IMG/VR virus record: IMGVR_UViG_3300018017_000001
Length of the DNA: 57,029 nucleotides
Direction: 5' to 3' (one strand)
Source: a virus
Shown here: piece after piece, positions 1-57,029 of the stretch
How the letters are laid out: every line of letters begins with the position of its first letter
How positions within the stretch are numbered: position 1 is the first letter of the stretch
The notes under the pieces: model-generated
Told to the model about the DNA's origin: nothing
Database searches by the model: none
What the model saw: only the letters and a program-made list of their open reading frames with translations
Translations under genes and position numbers: made by a program

Positions 1-123
1 GTTCTCGCATTCGATTCTGGCCCGATACTTCACAATCACCTTTCGTTCTCCTTCACCTTTCAATTGAGTTAGCATCTGTTCACTCCTTCTCCGGCGCTGG
101 GGACGCCCGCCAATTCCCCTGGA
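1..123. repeat. Direct terminal repeat, left copy (identical to 56907..57029)
   Basis: Read directly: the 123 nt gttctcgcattcgattctgg...caattcccctgga occur at both ends. 1..75 duplicates the 5' end of the minus-strand gene 56484..56981. Confidence 0.95.
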
Positions 124-310
124 ACGGTCCCGATCCTGTCCATTGTTCCGACCGTGCCTTGAGGAAGCACAAAATACTGAATGCGGTGTGGTAGCGTTCG
201 CAGGCCCTGTCCAGGTCGTGCCGCGTGCAGTCTTTCAAGGGATCGCACAGCAGATCACGAAGTTGGCCGGTTGCAGTAGTTAGTTCTTGCAGTGCTTCTT
301 CGATAGTCAT
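80..310 (-). CDS. Hypothetical early protein with C-terminal ASPAPEKE tail
   Basis: 76-aa ORF. Its ATG lies 2 nt after the stop of the upstream gene and is preceded by AAGGAGAAG. The last codons overlap the 15-nt junction motif and the SD of the next gene. Confidence 0.6.
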   Translation of the reverse strand: MTIEEALQELTTATGQLRDLLCDPLKDCTRHDLDRACERYHTAFSILCFLKARSEQWTGSGPFQGNWRASPAPEKE

Positions 311-312
311 GG

Positions 313-843
313 TTACTTCTCCTTTTCTTGAATTGGCGCTGGGGACGCCGAGCCTAATTCGGCATGCTTTTCCTGCTCCTTCAGCAGCGTATCGGTCATA
401 GCCTTCGCAATAGCCATCCGGCCTGAGAACACAACGCGCTTTTTGCCGGGGAAGTTACGCAAGGTAATGAGATTGAAGAGTGTTCCCTCAAAATCAGAAC
501 GGGATACATCCAAAACCTTCATGTCCTTGCGGTGCGGCGCAAGCTCGCGGGCTGCTCTGTTCGCCTGTGTGCATCTGGAACGCAGAATGTTCAATGCCGC
601 ACTTTGCGTATAGAACTTCCCCTCGGGCGATTTCCAAAGGCCACCTCCAACTGTCTGAGTTGGCATGTCTGCTGGAGCCGGGACTGCCTCTTCGCGCTCA
701 CTTCGCTCTGCATATTCTCTCGCTTTGGATTCGGCGTCGGGACCGGAGAACACGGCTTGATAGATATCTCCTGTTGCGCCGTCGATAGTTTCAACATGCC
801 AGTCATTCGGAAACTGCTGGTCGGCAAATACACTGGTCTGCAT
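313..843 (-). CDS. Hypothetical early protein (internal AVPAP, C-terminal ASPAPIQEKEK)
   Basis: ORF track gives 313..921. I prefer the ATG at 843 (MQTSVFADQ) because AAGGAGG lies 6 nt upstream. The start is uncertain. Confidence 0.5.
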   Translation of the reverse strand: MQTSVFADQQFPNDWHVETIDGATGDIYQAVFSGPDAESKAREYAERSEREEAVPAPADMPTQTVGGGLWKSPEGKFYTQSAALNILRSRCTQANRAARELAPHRKDMKVLDVSRSDFEGTLFNLITLRNFPGKKRVVFSGRMAIAKAMTDTLLKEQEKHAELGSASPAPIQEKEK

Positions 844-997
844 TGCTTTCCTCCTTAAAGAAAGTCTCCACGAGATCAACCAATTGCTTAAATTGATCCC
901 TAGTTGGCGTTCCCTCGACATGATGCTTGTCCTTTTCGATTGCGAAGATCATGTCGCACACGTAGTTCTCCGCGATACCTCTTCGTTCGCTGGTCAT
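803..997 (-). CDS. Hypothetical small early protein
   Basis: 64-aa ORF. GGAGAA SD precedes the ATG, which overlaps the upstream stop as ATGA. It overlaps the next gene by 41 nt if 843 is that gene's start. Confidence 0.4.
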   Translation of the reverse strand: MTSERRGIAENYVCDMIFAIEKDKHHVEGTPTRDQFKQLVDLVETFFKEESNADQCICRPAVSE

Positions 998-1563
998 TTA
1001 TTATTTCTCCTTCGGGGACGCCAAGCCGCGCTCCCGTGCTGGCATATTTTTCTCCGCCCGCACCCGCCCTCATCGAATTCTTTCAGCAGCCCAACTCTAA
1101 TGCCTTCGATCTCTTCGTAAAAGGTAAGCACTTTCAGTTCGGCGGTTTCCGCCCGCACTTTCCAATAAGAGATGGATTCCTGCTCGTCAAGCGTGCCTGC
1201 TGGAGCCGGGACTGCCGCCCCTTTGGACGGGCGAAATCTGTCCGCCGCGAAAGCATTGGCGTCTGAGGATGGCCGATAACAATAGTGTTCCCGAGAAGGC
1301 TTCTTGCAGCCTTCACACTCCTCAACTTGCTGCCGCTTACTGTCGATCATGGCCTGCAATGCCCGTTCGTCCATGATCTGTTTCCGCAACTTCTCGCAGT
1401 TTGGGCATTCGAGCGGAGCCGGGACTGCCGCCGGAGCGTGCGCCCAATCCTTCAGCGCTCGTTCCGCCTCGCAAGCCCAACATGGAGCCTCCGGGCATAC
1501 CTCATGCGTATGCTCGATCATAGTTAAGGCAGCACGGACAAGACGTTCTAATTCATTCGGCAT
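994..1563 (-). CDS. Hypothetical Cys-rich early protein with two internal AVPAP motifs
   Basis: 189-aa ORF with a GAGGAGG SD. Several CxxC pairs (CPEAPCWAC, CPNCE, CEGC). AVPAP separates three segments. Confidence 0.6.
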   Translation of the reverse strand: MPNELERLVRAALTMIEHTHEVCPEAPCWACEAERALKDWAHAPAAVPAPLECPNCEKLRKQIMDERALQAMIDSKRQQVEECEGCKKPSREHYCYRPSSDANAFAADRFRPSKGAAVPAPAGTLDEQESISYWKVRAETAELKVLTFYEEIEGIRVGLLKEFDEGGCGRRKICQHGSAAWRPRRRNNK

Positions 1564-1566
1564 GTC

Positions 1567-1704
1567 CTACCTCCTCGTCCACGGAACGATTGCCAGAAAC
1601 ATCGTGAGTTCAAAGAAGATCATGCAGCACGCGAAGCCGATGATCTTGAGCAATCGGATAATCTCCGCGTTAACTTCGTCTTGTCTCATTGGAGTGTTCG
1701 GCAT
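1567..1704 (-). CDS. Small membrane protein (45 aa)
   Basis: Start taken at MPNTPMRQ inside copy 1 of the 52-bp repeat (AAAGGAGCAAGTAGACATG). Hydrophobic segment IIGFACCMIFFELTMFLAIV. Confidence 0.45.
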   Translation of the reverse strand: MPNTPMRQDEVNAEIIRLLKIIGFACCMIFFELTMFLAIVPWTRR

Positions 1705-1751
1705 GTCTACTTGCTCCTTTCTTTGATCCATACTTGCTCGGTTAAAGTGAC
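1700..1751. repeat. 52-bp perfect direct repeat, copy 1
   Basis: ggcatgtctacttgctcctttctttgatccatacttgctcggttaaagtgac, identical to 1951..2002. Confidence 0.95.
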
Positions 1752-1955
1752 GGTTGTTTTCGCTCCGCAAACGCGGCAGTTCGAGATGAAGGGTTCTTCT
1801 CCCGAGAGCCAGCGAATGATAATAACTCCACGTCCGCAACGTCCACATTTCGTTGGCCGCGAGTTCGGAAGGAGTTGGACTTCATAGGCAGGATTGCCGC
1901 TAATCTGCGAAGTCGCCCGTTCAATCCTGATAACGACTCGGTGCAATCGGGGCAT
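1707..1955 (-). CDS. Small zinc-ribbon-like protein (82 aa)
   Basis: Start at MPRLHRVV inside copy 2 of the 52-bp repeat, which supplies the same SD and ATG. CGRCG...CRVCG motif. Confidence 0.5.
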   Translation of the reverse strand: MPRLHRVVIRIERATSQISGNPAYEVQLLPNSRPTKCGRCGRGVIIIRWLSGEEPFISNCRVCGAKTTVTLTEQVWIKERSK

Positions 1956-2002
1956 GTCTACTTGCTCCTTTCTTTGATCCATACTTGCTCGGTTAAAGTG
2001 AC
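1951..2002. repeat. 52-bp perfect direct repeat, copy 2
   Basis: Identical to 1700..1751. On the minus strand it supplies AAAGGAGCAAGTAGACATG to a different downstream gene. Confidence 0.95.
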
Positions 2003-2187: not shown

Positions 2188-2279
2188 GTCAATACACTCC
2201 TTTCGTGGCTCATGGCTTGCTCACTGGCTTGCTCTGACTGCTCACCTGGGGAATCGCAGTAGCCATCTAGCGCTCCTCA

Positions 2280-3053
2280 CTACTTCACTGCAACAAACTT
2301 TCCCTTCTTCAGCTCGTAAAATGTATCGGCCTTGATCTTCTTCCCGTCTACTTTGGCCGTTTTTACCGAGAGGACTTTGGGCGAGTCTTTCTCGTATTCC
2401 GCGAGGACAAGCCAGTTTCCGAGAGCCGCTTTCGCTTTTGCTTGTCTGCCAATCGCAGCCGCGATACTCTCTGCCCCCGACGTGGCAGCGTGCGAGGAGT
2501 TCCCCGACGTGGCAGCGTGCGAGGAGTACCCCGACGTGGCAGCGGGCGAGTAGTACCCCGACGTGGCAGCGGGCGAGTAGTACCCCGACGTGGCAGCGGG
2601 CGAGTAGTACCCCGACGTGGCAGCGGGCGAGGAGTACCCCGACGTGGCAGCGGGCGAGTAGTACCCCGACGTGGCAGCGGGCGAGGAGTTCCCCGACGTG
2701 GCAGCGTGCGAGGAGTACCCCGACGTGGGTTTCTCGGTCTTGGAGAGCAAGAACTTAACGCCAAGCTCAATCAGTGATTTCAGTTTGATCTCCGCGATGA
2801 TCTTCAGTTTCTTGGCGACTCGCTTCGAATCCTGCTCGGTCTGCGCCGAAACATCCTCGGCCTCTACTTCGGCATAGCGTCCCATTGCTGGCTGGTAGTA
2901 GCGCAGCACATCTATCGGATTCTCGCAAAAGTGAAATCCCGACCTACACAGATCGGCGGAAGATTCTGAATACTCTTTGCCAACCTCGTACTGAAAGACT
3001 TTGCCTTCAGGCGTGCATTGGAACTTTTCGTTGAAACCTTTGTAGCCTTTCAT
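2280..3053 (-). CDS. Repeat protein: GFHFC-type N-terminal domain, 9-aa tandem repeats (AATSGYYSP), Lys-rich C-terminus
   Basis: 257-aa ORF with the SD/start cassette GAGGAGCGCTAGATG. N-terminus MKGYKGF..CRSGFHFCENPIDVLRYY resembles the GIHF-type domain of the neighbouring gene. About 9.4 in-frame 27-bp repeats. Confidence 0.7.
   Translation of the reverse strand: MKGYKGFNEKFQCTPEGKVFQYEVGKEYSESSADLCRSGFHFCENPIDVLRYYQPAMGRYAEVEAEDVSAQTEQDSKRVAKKLKIIAEIKLKSLIELGVKFLLSKTEKPTSGYSSHAATSGNSSPAATSGYYSPAATSGYSSPAATSGYYSPAATSGYYSPAATSGYYSPAATSGYSSHAATSGNSSHAATSGAESIAAAIGRQAKAKAALGNWLVLAEYEKDSPKVLSVKTAKVDGKKIKADTFYELKKGKFVAVK
2475..2728. repeat. 27-bp tandem repeat, about 9.4 copies, in frame inside CDS 2280..3053
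   Basis: Units ccccgacgtggcagcg(t/g)gcgag(g/t)agt(t/a)(c) counted directly with period 27. Confidence 0.9.
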
Positions 3054-3068
3054 CTAGCGCTCCTCCGC

Positions 3069-3629
3069 CTAGTGTGCCGCGGCTTCTTCTCGGCTTAGGT
3101 AGAAATGAATCCCTCCGCCGCATTCCTGCCAGCGATCTTCATTCCACTTGTCGCAGCGAACGATCTTGCCTAGGCGATACTCAGTCTTTTTGTCATAAAG
3201 GCTTAGGCCGACTTCTGCTCCAATGACTTCCAGCACTTTCACATATTCGGCGCGGCACTTCCGTCCTGTGGCGCAACTTCGTCGGGCATTTTTGCCGATC
3301 ATCAACTTCACGATCACACCGTCGTGGCATTTCTTCCAGCCGACGAACTGCCCAACTTGCGGAACGATAGAAGTTCGCAGTAGCACGAGCACTGCGTCTT
3401 TTACGTCTTTGAGGTTCGCCCCGCCGAGGTTCGCCCCGCTGAGGTTCGCCCCGCCGAGGTTCGCCCCGCCGAGGTTCGCCCCGCTGAGGTTCGCCCCGCC
3501 GAGGTCCGCCCCGCTGAGGTTCGCCCCGCTGAGGTACGCCCCGCTGAGGTCCGCCCTTTTACCGCCTTCTTTGCCGCCCAGCCAAGCGGCGTGCAATTCT
3601 AGAACTTGCTTGATTTCTTCTTGTGTCAT
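3069..3629 (-). CDS. Pentapeptide-repeat protein with C-terminal GGGIHFY-type domain
   Basis: 186 aa. About 10 consecutive A(N/D)LSG/ANLGG pentapeptides. C-terminal Cys-containing domain ends [14 protein letters not shown]. Start cassette GAGGAGCGCTAGATATG. Confidence 0.85.
3411..3556. repeat. 15-bp tandem repeat, about 9.7 copies, encoding the pentapeptide repeats
   Basis: gaggt(t/c/a)cgccccgc(c/t) units counted directly. Confidence 0.9.
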
Positions 3630-3658
3630 ATCTAGCGCTCCTCCGTATCCCCTGTCAC

Positions 3659-4973: not shown

Positions 4974-5674
4974 TTGGCCTTCCCGTTCATCTTGATTTTG
5001 CCGTCTTTCATCTTTCGAAAGAATCGATAAATTTCTCCCCGCGACGCCATAGATGAACTGTAGTTCTCAAACGCCCCCTCTGAGTTCAATTTTTCCCACA
5101 TCTGGAGCGGAGTATAACCTTCGGCATACAATGTGATCGCTCGGTCTGTGAATGGACGAGGCCGCGGAGGCTTTGCCGGTTTCGGTTGGGCTGTTCCTGT
5201 CGCTGGGTTTTGAGTCGCAGCCAAAGCATAAGTCTCTTCTCTGCGTGATGCGTCTAAGGCAGAATCAAACTCCCGAATTTGCTCATAAGCGTTAGCACTC
5301 CAGCCCCATTTTGACAGCATCGTACGAAGGCTGATCGATACAGTCGGCACCTCAATCGGAGATGGGATAACCAAGTAGACAGGAGTATCAAAGCCTAATG
5401 CCTGTAATACCGGGCTGACGTCGGCTCGCAAAATATAGAAATCGACATGCGAACCATCCACTTTATTGTGTCGGTGGATATTGAACTGCCAAGAATGCTG
5501 GCCGTTGTGCCTGCGCGAGAATAAGGAATGCTTAACTTCCAGGCGCGTGCCATTCGGCGTATAGAGGTCAAAAGGGCTGTAATAACTAGCAATTGCCACT
5601 TTAATCCCGTGGCTGCTGAGCCAATGCCTAGCGGCTTGTTGGGCCGCGAACCACTCAGTTTGGTCGGCCTTCAT
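4970..5674 (-). CDS. PD-(D/E)xK nuclease-like protein, first gene of the leftward block
   Basis: 234 aa. SPFDLYTPNGTRLEVKHS is a D..ExK signature. Pro/Lys-rich linker and a basic C-terminal domain. No SD before the ATG, so it may be leaderless. Confidence 0.55.
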   Translation of the reverse strand: MKADQTEWFAAQQAARHWLSSHGIKVAIASYYSPFDLYTPNGTRLEVKHSLFSRRHNGQHSWQFNIHRHNKVDGSHVDFYILRADVSPVLQALGFDTPVYLVIPSPIEVPTVSISLRTMLSKWGWSANAYEQIREFDSALDASRREETYALAATQNPATGTAQPKPAKPPRPRPFTDRAITLYAEGYTPLQMWEKLNSEGAFENYSSSMASRGEIYRFFRKMKDGKIKMNGKAK

Positions 5675-5680
5675 GGGTAC

Positions 5681-5708
5681 ATATTACACGAGCGGTACAA
5701 AAAAGCAA
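5681..5708 (-). promoter_or_regulatory. Candidate leftward sigma70-like promoter (TTGCTT-N16-TAATAT), possibly giving a leaderless mRNA
   Basis: On the minus strand the -10 ends 6 nt before the ATG at 5674. A second candidate is TTGCTA (5734..5739) N17 TTTAAT (5711..5716). Confidence 0.3.
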
Positions 5709-5726
5709 GCATTAAATAAAAAGTTC

Positions 5727-10759: not shown

Positions 10760-10935
10760 CTCTAAGACTCTCAACCCGTCTAGTCGACGGCCAGATCGTG
10801 CTAGATTCGCGTTTAGAGGCGTTGAAACGGCTTACCCTAGGGAAAGCACAGCCAAGGGCTAAACAACGCTCTAGGGGCAAGGAAACGCTGGCAAACCGCA
10901 TCCTGGCGGCGGTGCTGCGCAAGAATCAGGCTTAG
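10756..10935 (+). CDS. Hypothetical small basic protein
   Basis: AAAGGAG SD. The ATG overlaps the upstream stop (ATGA). 59 aa. Confidence 0.45.
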   Translation: MTLRLSTRLVDGQIVLDSRLEALKRLTLGKAQPRAKQRSRGKETLANRILAAVLRKNQA

Positions 10936-17108: not shown

Positions 17109-17486
17109 ATGCCGCGAGCCGCTCTCTTTTCTCGGAACCAATCTCCTGAAGACAAACCAGCCCACTATCTCTCCCGCAAGTTCATTCCCTTCCTGCTCGC
17201 TCTCAAGATAGACGGCGTCGCTGCTGCCGTAGCGCTCGGCCCGAACAAACTCCAACTGAACACAGACGAGCCCTGGATTCAAACGAAGCGCAGATTCTTG
17301 TTCTCGCAAGCTTGCATAGCGATTAAGGTCGTTCCGAAGCCGGAACTCTGCAGCCCGAACGAATCTCTCGATCTCGCATATCCGGAACCGCTTCGCGTGA
17401 CGGTGCACAATCCCCATCCCGGGTTCCTAGCTGCTTGCCAGAAGGCTCGGGCTGCAAATTTGCAGGCGAAGGGCATGAATGGATGA
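17109..17486 (+). CDS. Uncertain ORF (125 aa); competes with antisense ORF 17064..17417
   Basis: No SD. It ends ..ARAANLQAKGMNG with the palindrome in the same frame (ANLQA) as in genes 14120 and 28104. The two candidates have similar GC3, so I cannot decide between them. Confidence 0.3.
   Translation: MPRAALFSRNQSPEDKPAHYLSRKFIPFLLALKIDGVAAAVALGPNKLQLNTDEPWIQTKRRFLFSQACIAIKVVPKPELCSPNESLDLAYPEPLRVTVHNPHPGFLAACQKARAANLQAKGMNG
17452..17465. promoter_or_regulatory. Perfect palindrome CTGCAAATTTGCAG
   Basis: It is followed by GCGAAGGGCATGA and then ATG 17479. Confidence 0.6.
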
Positions 17487-54779: not shown

Positions 54780-55568
54780 ATGCCAAACTTCAAACTGGGC
54801 CGCAACCCGGTCAAGTTCCACCCTAAGACGCTCCGCCTAAGCAAGTACCTCAATCCCGCGCCTCTGCCGGATCCGGTGGAGAAGGTCTATCGGGAATACA
54901 AAACCCCGGCCGCCGCGATGCAGATGTTCGGCAACGACCAATGGGGCGACTGTACCTGTGCTGGCATAGCCAACAAGTTGGTCAGCGACAGCTGCCATAC
55001 TGGAACGGTGATCATTCCGACAGAGGCTGAGGTGCTGGCCCTGTACTCAGCCGTCACCGGCTTCGATCCGAACGCTGGTCCTCCGGGAAGCAATCCGACC
55101 GATAACGGCGCGGCCATGACCGACGTCCTCGCCTACATGCAGAGCACGGGCATCACGATCGGCGGCGTTGTCTACAAGATTCTCGGCTGGGCGGAGATCG
55201 ACATCACGAACCTGGCTCATCGGCGCATTGGGTGTCAGCTGTTCAACGGGACTTACACGGGCGTGAACCTGCCGTCCGCTGCGCAGAGCCAGTTCATCGA
55301 GGGCCAGCAGTGCGATTGGGAAGTGGTTCCGAACGACACGATCGTCGGCGGCCACTGCATCTTCCGGCCGGGATATGGATCGGAGGGTGATGCTTACGTC
55401 ACTTGGGCCAACTGGTGGGTAAAGGCATCAGCGGCCTGGAGCGCAGCGTATATCGAAGAGGAGTACGTGATCATCACGCCAGAGTGGTTCTCTGCGGCTA
55501 CGCAGAAGACGCCTGGCGGATTGGATCTGGCAACGCTCGAGGCCGACCTAGCCGCGATTTCTAGCTAG
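54780..55568 (+). CDS. Papain-like (C1-like) cysteine peptidase, candidate endolysin or processing enzyme
   Basis: 262 aa with AGGAGGAACA SD. NDQWGDCTCAG (Cys nucleophile context) and VGGHC (His context). Confidence 0.45.
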   Translation: MPNFKLGRNPVKFHPKTLRLSKYLNPAPLPDPVEKVYREYKTPAAAMQMFGNDQWGDCTCAGIANKLVSDSCHTGTVIIPTEAEVLALYSAVTGFDPNAGPPGSNPTDNGAAMTDVLAYMQSTGITIGGVVYKILGWAEIDITNLAHRRIGCQLFNGTYTGVNLPSAAQSQFIEGQQCDWEVVPNDTIVGGHCIFRPGYGSEGDAYVTWANWWVKASAAWSAAYIEEEYVIITPEWFSAATQKTPGGLDLATLEADLAAISS

Positions 55569-56184
55569 GCTTCTCCGTGGCGGGCGCGGCTGGGGAAGCA
55601 AGAGCCTTCTCTGCAAATAGCACGTCAGGATGGTCAGGACTGTGCTCTCCACGAAAATAGGGTAGCAATCGTTCAAGCGCCTGCTTGAGTGATTCGACCT
55701 GAGCCTTCAATTCGTCCAGAGTTGATGAACACTCGTCGCACCCGTATTCCTGTGCTAGTATTGACCAGCGATTAGCCCTTTCGTTGGCGGCGTCCCGCTC
55801 GGCCTTGAGACGGGCATTTTCGCTCAGCAATTTGCCGAATGTCTCTGGAGGCATCGCAACTTCGTCTCTCGCTGTCATCTCTACCTTCGGCTTGCCCGCG
55901 TCGTGCCAAGGATGCAGCGGTTCCAAATCAGACCAGCCATTTCCCTCTGCTATGATTTTGAACCGCTGTTTGATTTCTACATCATGTTCGGGTGGCCACC
56001 ACGCTTTAATATATGCGCCATACGGAGCCGGACCACCTTTGCCAATCGTGCCTTCACAACTGGAAAAGGTTCGCACGCCTGAAAGAGAATTAAGCCAACG
56101 CAGAGGAGCGGCGATTTTCTCATCAGCGTCAATCCAAACTTGAACGGGAACTGTTGTATGCGGGCATCGGTCGGTGCTAGTCAT
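55561..56184 (-). CDS. Last gene of the leftward block; hypothetical, coiled-coil C-terminus ending ..ASPAAPATEKPS
   Basis: Start at MTSTDRCPH (GAAGGGAAAG SD). Track ORF 55561..56250. It converges on gene 54780 with an 8-nt overlap. Confidence 0.5.
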   Translation of the reverse strand: MTSTDRCPHTTVPVQVWIDADEKIAAPLRWLNSLSGVRTFSSCEGTIGKGGPAPYGAYIKAWWPPEHDVEIKQRFKIIAEGNGWSDLEPLHPWHDAGKPKVEMTARDEVAMPPETFGKLLSENARLKAERDAANERANRWSILAQEYGCDECSSTLDELKAQVESLKQALERLLPYFRGEHSPDHPDVLFAEKALASPAAPATEKPS

Positions 56185-56216
56185 CGCTTTCCCTTCGGCG
56201 CTCTCAACTGACGATA

Positions 56217-56483: not shown

Positions 56484-56981
56484 CTACTTTCCCTCCGGCG
56501 CTGGGGACGCCCAACTAGATAATTGCTTAGCAAGATCACTGGCTTGTTCCTGCGTAACGTAAACCGTTCCCGAATCCCCGCAGTCCATGCGGATTCCGAT
56601 TACATGAGGCTCCTCGCCGTCTTCCATGAGCCAAATGTGGTCCGTGCATTTTCCTTGCAAATGCAACTGGCCGGTGATATCGAGTTCTCGCCACTCCAAA
56701 AACATATGGTGGTTGCCTTCGCCTAATGTATGTTTCCCCGGTGCGGGACAGTGGCCTTCCGGCACCTGCGGTTTGCATTCGCCACAAGTGAACACATCGG
56801 TGTCGGACGACCAAGAGCAATCATCTCGACCATAGGCATGAGACTTCGGATTGTTCCTGTAGTTCGTGAGCAGAAACGTATAGCGATAAACGGCAGGCTC
56901 GCCACAGTTCTCGCATTCGATTCTGGCCCGATACTTCACAATCACCTTTCGTTCTCCTTCACCTTTCAATTGAGTTAGCAT
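56484..56981 (-). CDS. Cys-rich hypothetical early protein ending ..WASPAPEGK
   Basis: 165 aa with several CxxC pairs. Its start lies inside the terminal repeat (equivalent to position 75). Confidence 0.6.
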   Translation of the reverse strand: MLTQLKGEGERKVIVKYRARIECENCGEPAVYRYTFLLTNYRNNPKSHAYGRDDCSWSSDTDVFTCGECKPQVPEGHCPAPGKHTLGEGNHHMFLEWRELDITGQLHLQGKCTDHIWLMEDGEEPHVIGIRMDCGDSGTVYVTQEQASDLAKQLSSWASPAPEGK

Positions 56982-57029
56982 CTGTTCACTCCTTCTCCGG
57001 CGCTGGGGACGCCCGCCAATTCCCCTGGA
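56907..57029. repeat. Direct terminal repeat, right copy
   Basis: Identical to 1..123. This implies a circular or terminally redundant genome of 56,906 unique bp. Confidence 0.95.

Follow-up and report, generated by a model that had tools for sequence, protein, structure and literature searches.

Repeated, translated Ala/Pro motifs at gene ends and a module seam in the leftward operon of an IMG/VR phage

The IMG/VR virus record IMGVR_UViG_3300018017_000001 comprises 57,029 nucleotides, which were analysed at full length and are referred to here as the window; all coordinates are those of the window unless another contig is named. Its ends share an exact 123-bp direct overlap (1..123 = 56907..57029), so that features near both ends are counted twice, and the window represents a phage genome of ~56,906 bp with 56.6% G+C, assembled as a closed circle. 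The genome encodes a portal-like protein, a DnaB-like helicase, a RecT-like annealing protein and a PD-(D/E)XK nuclease, and more than 20 contigs from peat and bog metagenomes carry exact copies of the phage's proteins. A leftward (minus-strand) operon runs from ~5674 through position 1 and across the assembly join to 55561, where it converges with the last rightward gene; its final genes are, in order, pA, pB, pC, pD, pE, pF and pG. Here we describe two related 15-nt motifs, V1 and V2, named for their sequences on the coding (minus) strand and encoding A-S-P-A-P and A-V-P-A-P respectively, every copy of which lies within the final ~2.4-3 kb of this operon.

Motif copies at the operon end

V1 (GGCGTCCCCAGCGCC) and V2 (GGCAGTCCCGGCTCC) each occur in three exact copies, located at the ends of gene cassettes and at a fusion seam (Table 1). 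All six full copies are translated in the same codon phase as A-S-P-A-P or A-V-P-A-P. The initial annotation had reported them on the plus strand, V1 as GGCGCTGGGGACGCC and V2 as GGAGCCGGGACTGCC, and each of the positions it gave proved to be an exact match. The four V1 positions that it listed come to three copies, however, since two of them (93..107 and 56999..57013) are one site seen twice through the assembly overlap, and the pattern GGnGCnGGGACnGCC under which it had grouped the variants fits V2 but differs from V1 at two positions in that register. The three protein tails that it described (..ASPAPEKE, ..ASPAPIQEKEK and ..WASPAPEGK) are all present in the translations, and V1 does indeed lie at gene 3' ends directly 5' of the next gene's Shine-Dalgarno sequence (SD). 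Similarly, a looser variant near 55585 is present and extends over 55571..55603, while a truncated copy placed at 1013..1022 exists but is confined to GGCGTCCCC at 1014..1022. To these we add a partial copy that had been missed: at 56187..56202, where non-coding DNA separates pF from pG, stands the 3' half of V1 with its SD (AGCGCCGAAGGGAAAG). The AVPAP linkers had been said to separate Cys-rich segments; this is true of the two copies in the Cys-rich 189-aa pA, but not of the third, which lies in the 176-aa pC, a protein that is not Cys-rich.

V1 or a part of it precedes five consecutive start codons (window 997, 310, 75, 56480 and 56184), in one orientation and directly 5' of the SD. Full copies end 16-24 nt before the ATG, and the 3' half between pF and pG ends 12 nt before it. 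No further copy of either variant with one or two mismatches was found elsewhere in the whole window. In dinucleotide-preserving shuffles the expected number of occurrences was 0.28 for V1 (at <=2 mismatches) and 0.01 for the degenerate pattern, and a chance origin can therefore be discarded, given three exact copies per variant.

Table 1. Genes, motif copies and other junction repeats of the leftward operon (L133 and L134 are contigs of a related lineage; SD, Shine-Dalgarno sequence)
Feature	Position in window	Strand	Description
pA	994..1563	-	189 aa; orphan, Cys-rich; three segments split by two V2 linkers
pB		-	64 aa; between pA and pC
pC	313..843	-	176 aa; not Cys-rich; apparent two-family fusion (residues 1-57; residues ~67-170)
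pD	80..310	-	76-aa cassette with V1 on either side; not in the L133/L134 lineage
pE	56484..56981	-	165-aa two-domain mosaic with V1 on either side; not in the L133/L134 lineage
pF		-	87 aa; between pE and pG
pG	55561..56184	-	207 aa; final gene of the leftward operon
V1	93..107 (same copy as 56999..57013)	-	End of pD (..WRASPAPEKE, stop), then SD GGAGAAGGAG of pE
V1	335..349	-	End of pC (..GSASPAPIQEKEK, stop); pD start codon 24 nt downstream; kept in L133 with the same left arm
V1 + GGAGGGAAAGTAG	56484..56511 (V1 56497..56511)	-	28-nt linker at the pE-pF junction (..WASPAPEGK, stop)
V1 5' half, GGCGTCCCC	1014..1022	-	pA-pB junction, other frame (..AAWRPRRRNNK, stop), then SD GAAGGAG
V1 3' half + SD, AGCGCCGAAGGGAAAG	56187..56202	-	Non-coding pF-pG spacer
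Loose V1 relative	55571..55603	-	End of pG (..LASPAAPATEKPS, stop); vestigial SD-like GGAGAAG, no gene downstream
V2 (AVPAP)	674..688	-	Seam of the pC N- and C-modules; then AGCAGACATGCC, containing in-frame Met60
V2 (AVPAP)	1202..1216	-	Inside pA, between segments 2 and 3; 24/26 nt in common with the copy at 674
V2 (AVPAP)	1415..1429	-	Inside pA, between segments 1 and 2
GGAGGAGCGCTAGAT(G)	2265..2278, 3052..3065, 3630..3643	-	SD and overlapping stop/start at three consecutive junctions of pentapeptide/DUF5758 and DUF7666 genes
52-bp perfect direct repeat	1700..1751, 1951..2002		Period 251 nt, flanking an 82-aa gene; gene 3' end + SD AAAGGAG + ATGCC

Descent of the copies and a hybrid junction in a related lineage

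From differences at codon third positions the initial annotation had argued for selection on the peptide, and from the out-of-frame copy for a nucleic-acid signal. Each argument holds for one level of comparison. V1 and V2 differ from one another at all four synonymous sites as well as at the S/V codon, so that the likeness between the variants is one of peptide only. Within each variant, by contrast, the codons are identical, and under peptide-only selection with the codon usage of this genome the probability that two further copies would share the four codons is ~1e-5 per variant. The conserved block is also out of register with the codons, since its first base is the third position of the codon before (a G in 6/6 full copies) and its last is the second position of the final Pro codon. 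Because the codons are identical within each variant, the copies within a variant arose as DNA-level copies of a short module and not as convergent peptides. The frame-shifted 5' half at the pA-pB junction and the non-coding 3' half between pF and pG likewise indicate the descent of a nucleotide module rather than of a required peptide. When the carrier proteins were compared, no similarity was found outside the motif, and nucleotide identity ends within 0-11 nt beyond the core, with V2 copies matching over up to 24/26 nt and V1 copies over up to 20 nt including GGAG; the recent duplication of a gene segment is thereby excluded.

The clearest indication of what happens at these sites comes from a related lineage. 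Among the homologues of pC is P0060 (117 aa), which matches pC residues 96-170 with 92% identity and has ..ELGSASPAPEGK as its C-terminal end. It is encoded on contig L133 (ENA, 1135 nt); the lineage is also represented by L134 (JGI, 1932 nt), an independent contig from a second sample. Positions 211-423 of L133 match window 547-335 with 94.8% identity, and this match ends at the last base of V1. The 11 nucleotide differences amount to seven synonymous and three non-synonymous codon changes, a ratio that identifies it as a functional gene under purifying selection. Positions 409-436 of L133 are in turn 100% identical to window 56511-56484, the 28 nt of V1 + GGAGGGAAAGTAG that form the pE-pF junction. 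In alignment A4 the two homology blocks have precisely the 15 nt of V1 in common, so that the L133 junction reads as a hybrid whose left arm comes from the end of pC and whose right arm comes from the end of pE. The 729 nt that hold pD and pE are missing from L133, and the gene after V1 is a different one, a 33-aa ORF (open reading frame) ending ..LASPAAPATEKTKDGAK before its stop codon; its last 33 nt are 97% identical to the tail of pG, with both flanks unrelated (alignment A5). L134 confirms this arrangement, in which pD, pE, pF and pG are all absent.

With similar DUF5675-like and outer-membrane-like late genes, the L133/L134 lineage is a related phage, and its genome is rearranged exactly at the motif copies. 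V1-family tails are thus kept across lineages, and the gene bodies on either side are exchanged. A comparison with related genomes had been proposed as a check on gene shuffling at the motif, and in L133 and L134 different genes do surround the same unit of V1, SD and stop codon. Together with the position of AVPAP at the seam between the two protein families joined in pC, the origin of the two L133 arms from two different V1 junctions supports the earlier suggestion of module-boundary recombination sites.

Beyond this lineage the motif was not recovered. The V1 15-mer has 105 matches in IMG/VR, all of them single and in unrelated contexts, which rules out a widespread viral or host motif; V1 extended by GGAG has 17 genome matches, all unrelated, and the V2 20-mer is absent from IMG/VR. 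Since IMG/VR and the reference genomes give only single chance matches, the motif is best regarded as a lineage-specific instance and not a widespread signal. GenBank phages, searched by DNA and by protein, yielded no useful relatives; PD-(D/E)XK and peptidase anchors led only to distant loci or to none in IMG/VR and the reference genomes; and the homologues of the pE C-terminal domain in IMG/VR carry no motif. An RNA hairpin or SD sequestration was also considered and rejected: a 5-bp stem is possible in V1, but the folds are inconsistent and do not exceed those of shuffled sequences (z -0.35 to +1.4), and V2 has no stem. No Rfam family matches the motif region, and no promoter or terminator pattern was found at the sites.

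Protein modules and other junction repeats

Homologues of pC were collected by a full HMMER search of 1.84 billion representative proteins, which gave 54 matches. About 45 of these align only to residues 1 to ~57, and most are stand-alone proteins of 58-90 aa; a few others align only to residues ~67-170, and the two groups do not overlap. AVPAP occupies residues 53-57, at the boundary between the N-module and the C-module. As the homologues split at this point into two non-overlapping groups, pC appears to combine two independent modules that are fused at V2, and in pC V2 has the position of a Pro/Ala-rich inter-domain linker between independently occurring modules. Three N-module homologues with other C-terminal extensions (P0078, P0086 and P0089) have Pro/Ala-rich linkers at the same point, which implies that, as a peptide, a flexible A/P linker has been used at this joint more than once; P0086 even reads AVPAP, by entirely different codons (GCGGTTCCCGCGCCC). 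The 9-mer AGACATGCC just after V2 in pC also surrounds the start codons of two upstream genes. MAFFT alignment A6 misplaced the pC C-module homologues and was kept out of structure prediction. In the pC variant P0038 (ENA contig) the V2 copy reads AVPVP instead of AVPAP, a single population variant that could be a rare single-nucleotide polymorphism or an assembly error. A stand-alone N-module homologue, P0063 (66 aa, 77% identical over the matched stretch), is encoded in apparently bacterial contigs (L135-L137) between a Wadjet-like set (DUF2398, SbcC-like, DUF3323/DUF2399) on one side and SMC/AAA- and HATPase-type genes on the other. This context resembles a defence island and hints that the small N-module may have a role in defence or anti-defence.

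A search of a 5.8-billion protein set with pA found only pA itself, and there are no homologues among GenBank phages; both pA and pC are probably fusions. pE, in turn, is a mosaic of an N-terminal zinc-ribbon module and a C-terminal module (LHLQGKCTDHIWLMEDG..IRMDCGDSGTVY), each of which is found alone or differently fused in many uncultivated phages. Among the loci with pE modules (L001, L002, L118, L119, L121 and L125-L132) are large phage contigs in which repeated tRNA-like sequences lie close by. The closest relative of pE, P0002, is 88% identical but has other neighbour genes, a different tail (KSMLEVKTGGN) and no motif, which shows that the tail belongs to the junction and not to the protein.

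Shared strings are found at other junctions of the operon as well. Among 17 start-region windows, seven pairs have exact common strings of at least 12 nt, against 0.28 expected for random windows of the same operon. These strings fall into three junction families, GGAGGAGCGCTAGAT(G), a 52-bp repeat with its related ..GTAGGACATGCC, and V1, so that shared junction strings are not peculiar to V1 within the operon. The third copy of GGAGGAGCGCTAGAT(G) is followed only by a 17-codon mini-ORF. The 52-mer family, including ..GTAGGACATGCC, is present at three junctions. One copy of the 52-bp repeat is coding (..VTLTEQVWIKERSK, stop), whereas the other lies mostly past the stop codon of the upstream 64-aa gene, indicating that this event too took place at the DNA level; it looks like a recent duplication of a junction or the insertion of a cassette. 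A comparable case comes from a distant phage with a homologue of the pE C-terminal domain (L119), where consecutive genes end ..AAPVGGSEK and ..AAPNQTEGGSEK before their stop codons and have 19 nt in common, in the string GGAGGGAGCGAGAAATGAG (L119 10430..10459 and 10880..10911). Two earlier junctions of that locus share TAGGAGGGAAAGTGTA.

Several further features of the region were recorded. The leftward operon opens with a gene whose ATG is at 5674; upstream of it are TTGCTT and, after 16 nt, TAATAT, which ends 6 nt before the ATG, and no SD is present (window ~5675..5720, minus strand). These elements may form a promoter whose transcript would have little or no leader. Near the motif region lies a gene for a small HTH_3 protein. 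Within the DUF7666 gene there are about ten 27-bp tandem repeats (SPAATSGYY), and within a neighbouring gene 15-bp pentapeptide repeats (window 2280..3053 and 3069..3629); in otherwise identical contigs that come from different samples (L003-L006) the products of these repeat genes vary in length, with 257/248/221/194 aa for the first and 196/186/176 aa for the second. A 14-bp palindrome, CTGCAAATTTGCAG, occurs five times in the window (~4254, 11380, 14781, 17452 and 29332) and again at L133 717..736, where 20/20 nt equal window 17449..17468, and at L134 ~444..457; in the related phage its position is just past the early operon, and it is a candidate regulator-binding or terminator-like site.

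Junction linkers and the alternatives

In light of these data, we favour the view, with a probability of roughly 0.6, that V1 and V2 serve as translated junction modules where cassettes meet, which mark and probably mediate the shuffling and fusion of genes. Each cassette would end in ~15-28 nt that comprise V1, the SD of the next gene and a stop codon, translated as a harmless Ala/Pro-rich tail of A-S-P-A-P followed by the E/K/G residues that the SD encodes. Whereas this unit would separate cistrons, the sister sequence V2 (AVPAP) would join modules in frame. Since all copies share one codon phase, any two of them could cross over and still leave an intact ORF and a working downstream ribosome-binding site. 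The copies would thus act as, or at least mark, crossover points for the gain, loss, swap and fusion of cassettes among related phages, and the phage's RecT-like annealing protein and PD-(D/E)XK exonuclease would probably contribute. That they serve as crossover points is suggested by a single relative, and they may be the substrate that promotes the exchange.

A number of observations weigh against this view. Only one diverged lineage, represented by the short contigs L133 and L134, displays the rearrangement, and the breakpoint coincidence concerns two junctions; the left edge of the L133 homology (window 547) falls inside pC, away from the motif. At ~5% divergence, the perfect conservation of 15-28 nt is not significantly better than that of the flanks (P ~0.2-0.5), so it need not reflect selection on the linker sequence itself. 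Ten long contigs of the window phage are 100% identical across the region, with no deletion or rearrangement between copies; protein-cluster variants are single-residue singletons, the AVPVP change being one of them. The V2 seams of pA have no homologues with which to compare them, and a single-sequence AlphaFold2 model of pA was too poor to interpret (pLDDT 40). Finally, 15 nt is short for efficient homologous recombination, and a role in translating the downstream gene would yield the same positional pattern.

That last possibility takes its most definite form if V1 is a start-associated element in the translation initiation of the downstream gene (a standby site, an enhancer or a factor site) that is translated only through tight gene packing. 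Its occurrence, whole or in part, before five starts in a single orientation and directly 5' of the SD is what such an element would show, as is the retention of just the SD-adjacent half in the non-coding copy and the 100% conservation of the 28 nt of V1, SD and stop codon before a different gene in L133. However, V1 is not part of the SD and its distance from the ATG varies (12-24 nt), the three V2 copies are without an SD and two of them without a start codon downstream, and in the window phage no gene follows the copy that ends pG. With no copies before the remaining ~70 genes, no consistent predicted RNA structure and no Rfam match, we consider this explanation unlikely. The initial annotation had been reminded of the start-associated sequences (SAS) of mycobacteriophages, and the likeness to those of Cluster K counts in favour of a start-associated element. 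The Cluster K SAS is a 13-mer, GGGATAGGAGCCC, that contains the SD core, lies 3-7 bp from the start codon and occurs 11-19 times per genome, distributed through the non-structural half (PMC3203893). Like SAS/ESAS, the present motifs are asymmetric short repeats in a single orientation (all minus), restricted to non-structural genes and associated with the starts of unrelated families. Their sequences are different, though, and lack AGGAG, the SD coming only after V1; V1 is 12-24 nt from the ATG and V2 lies inside ORFs; and there are three full copies per variant at the end of one operon, with none elsewhere at <=2 mismatches. The resemblance therefore stands as an analogy (sites near starts, in one orientation, before unrelated genes) but fails in defining sequence, spacing and copy number.

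It is quite unlikely, in our view, that A-[S/V]-P-A-P is a functional short linear motif (a degron, a partner-binding site or a processing site) under selection in the protein. The common codon phase of the six full copies and the L133 copy would be expected of such a motif, as would the preservation of A-x-P-A-P by variants with no synonymous site (of four) in common; A/P-rich ends are frequent among remote homologues of the pC C-module and of the C-terminal domain of pE (FAVAPEGE, FAAPVGGSEK, LGNPAPVLE), and a remote N-module homologue encodes AVPAP with entirely different codons. Set against this are the codon identity within each variant, with its probability of ~1e-5 under peptide-only selection, one frame-shifted and one non-coding copy, and an 88%-identical relative of pE that has a different tail. 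Moreover, the other tail residues (EKE, EGK and QEKEK) are set by the SD, and A/P-rich linkers are generic flexible spacers for which no specific function is needed. Pro/Ala-rich flexible inter-domain linkers and C-terminal extensions are a general feature of protein architecture, and AVPAP, at the seam of two independently occurring pC modules, conforms to it; generic linkers of this kind do not, however, repeat identical codons in several unrelated genes of one genome.

Stoperator-like DNA sites, at which a phage regulator would block or modulate transcription through the operon from gene ends, seem to us highly improbable. V1 resembles stoperators in being an asymmetric 15-mer at gene ends whose orientation follows transcription; it has a partial dyad (GGCG-N7-CGCC), and the small HTH_3 protein encoded nearby would provide a possible regulator. 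The stoperators of Cluster A, to which the L5 repressor binds, are more than 20 asymmetric sites of ~13-15 bp that are distributed genome-wide, including at promoters and in short intergenic spaces (PMC9283540). Here, by contrast, the sites number only 3+3 and are confined to the end of one operon, with none at a promoter-like site or elsewhere; V2 has no dyad symmetry, half-copies persist, and the constant reading frame is not something that a DNA-binding site needs.

A bolder version of the junction-linker view, which we regard as very doubtful, is that the operon end is an active integron-like cassette array in which V1 and V2 are dedicated crossover sites that evolved as inert, fixed-phase Ala/Pro linkers. 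The RecT-like protein and the exonuclease, or else an unrecognised site-specific enzyme, would add, delete, permute and fuse small accessory genes, with V1 yielding separate cistrons and V2 fusion proteins, and without ORFs or ribosome-binding sites ever being broken; if this were so, the shuffled small genes might include anti-defence genes. Integron attC sites are imperfect inverted repeats that adopt a hairpin fold and serve an integron integrase encoded next to them. Unlike these, the motifs form no consistent hairpin (z near 0) and V2 has no dyad, and no integrase was found among the proteins scanned, although the whole genome was not scanned for one.

The original modular-exchange model is reportedly due to Susskind and Botstein. 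For lambdoid phages, the model of modular exchange includes conserved linker or boundary sequences at module junctions (PMC3974807), and the locus described here is best filed as a variation on this known idea. As with boundary linkers, a short sequence is common to junctions of non-homologous genes (V1 at three gene ends and partially at two more), the same sequence has different flanking genes in a related genome (the pC C-module and the 33-aa ORF in L133/L134, pE and pF in the window), and a mosaic breakpoint in one relative lineage falls on the 15 nt of V1. Unlike boundary linkers, V1 lies inside coding sequence as an Ala/Pro tail in fixed phase and carries the next SD and a stop codon, its sister variant V2 is an in-frame fusion linker, and several copies stand in tandem along one operon. 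What is unusual, then, is a linker that is translated in fixed phase and exists in two forms, one separating cistrons and the other fusing modules.

It has long been asked whether phage modules are exchanged at short conserved linkers or at random points with subsequent selection, and clear natural examples of linkers are few. This locus offers a compact case, with a linker that is repeated within one genome, translated in fixed phase and coincident with a breakpoint in a related phage. For gene calling it matters that pA and pC are probably fusions, and should the sites indeed promote exchange, the engineering of phage cassettes would have natural "safe" junctions at hand. More broadly, the locus shows how small early genes can fuse into multi-module proteins, and it bears on the turnover of accessory gene sets in these phages, possibly including anti-defence genes.

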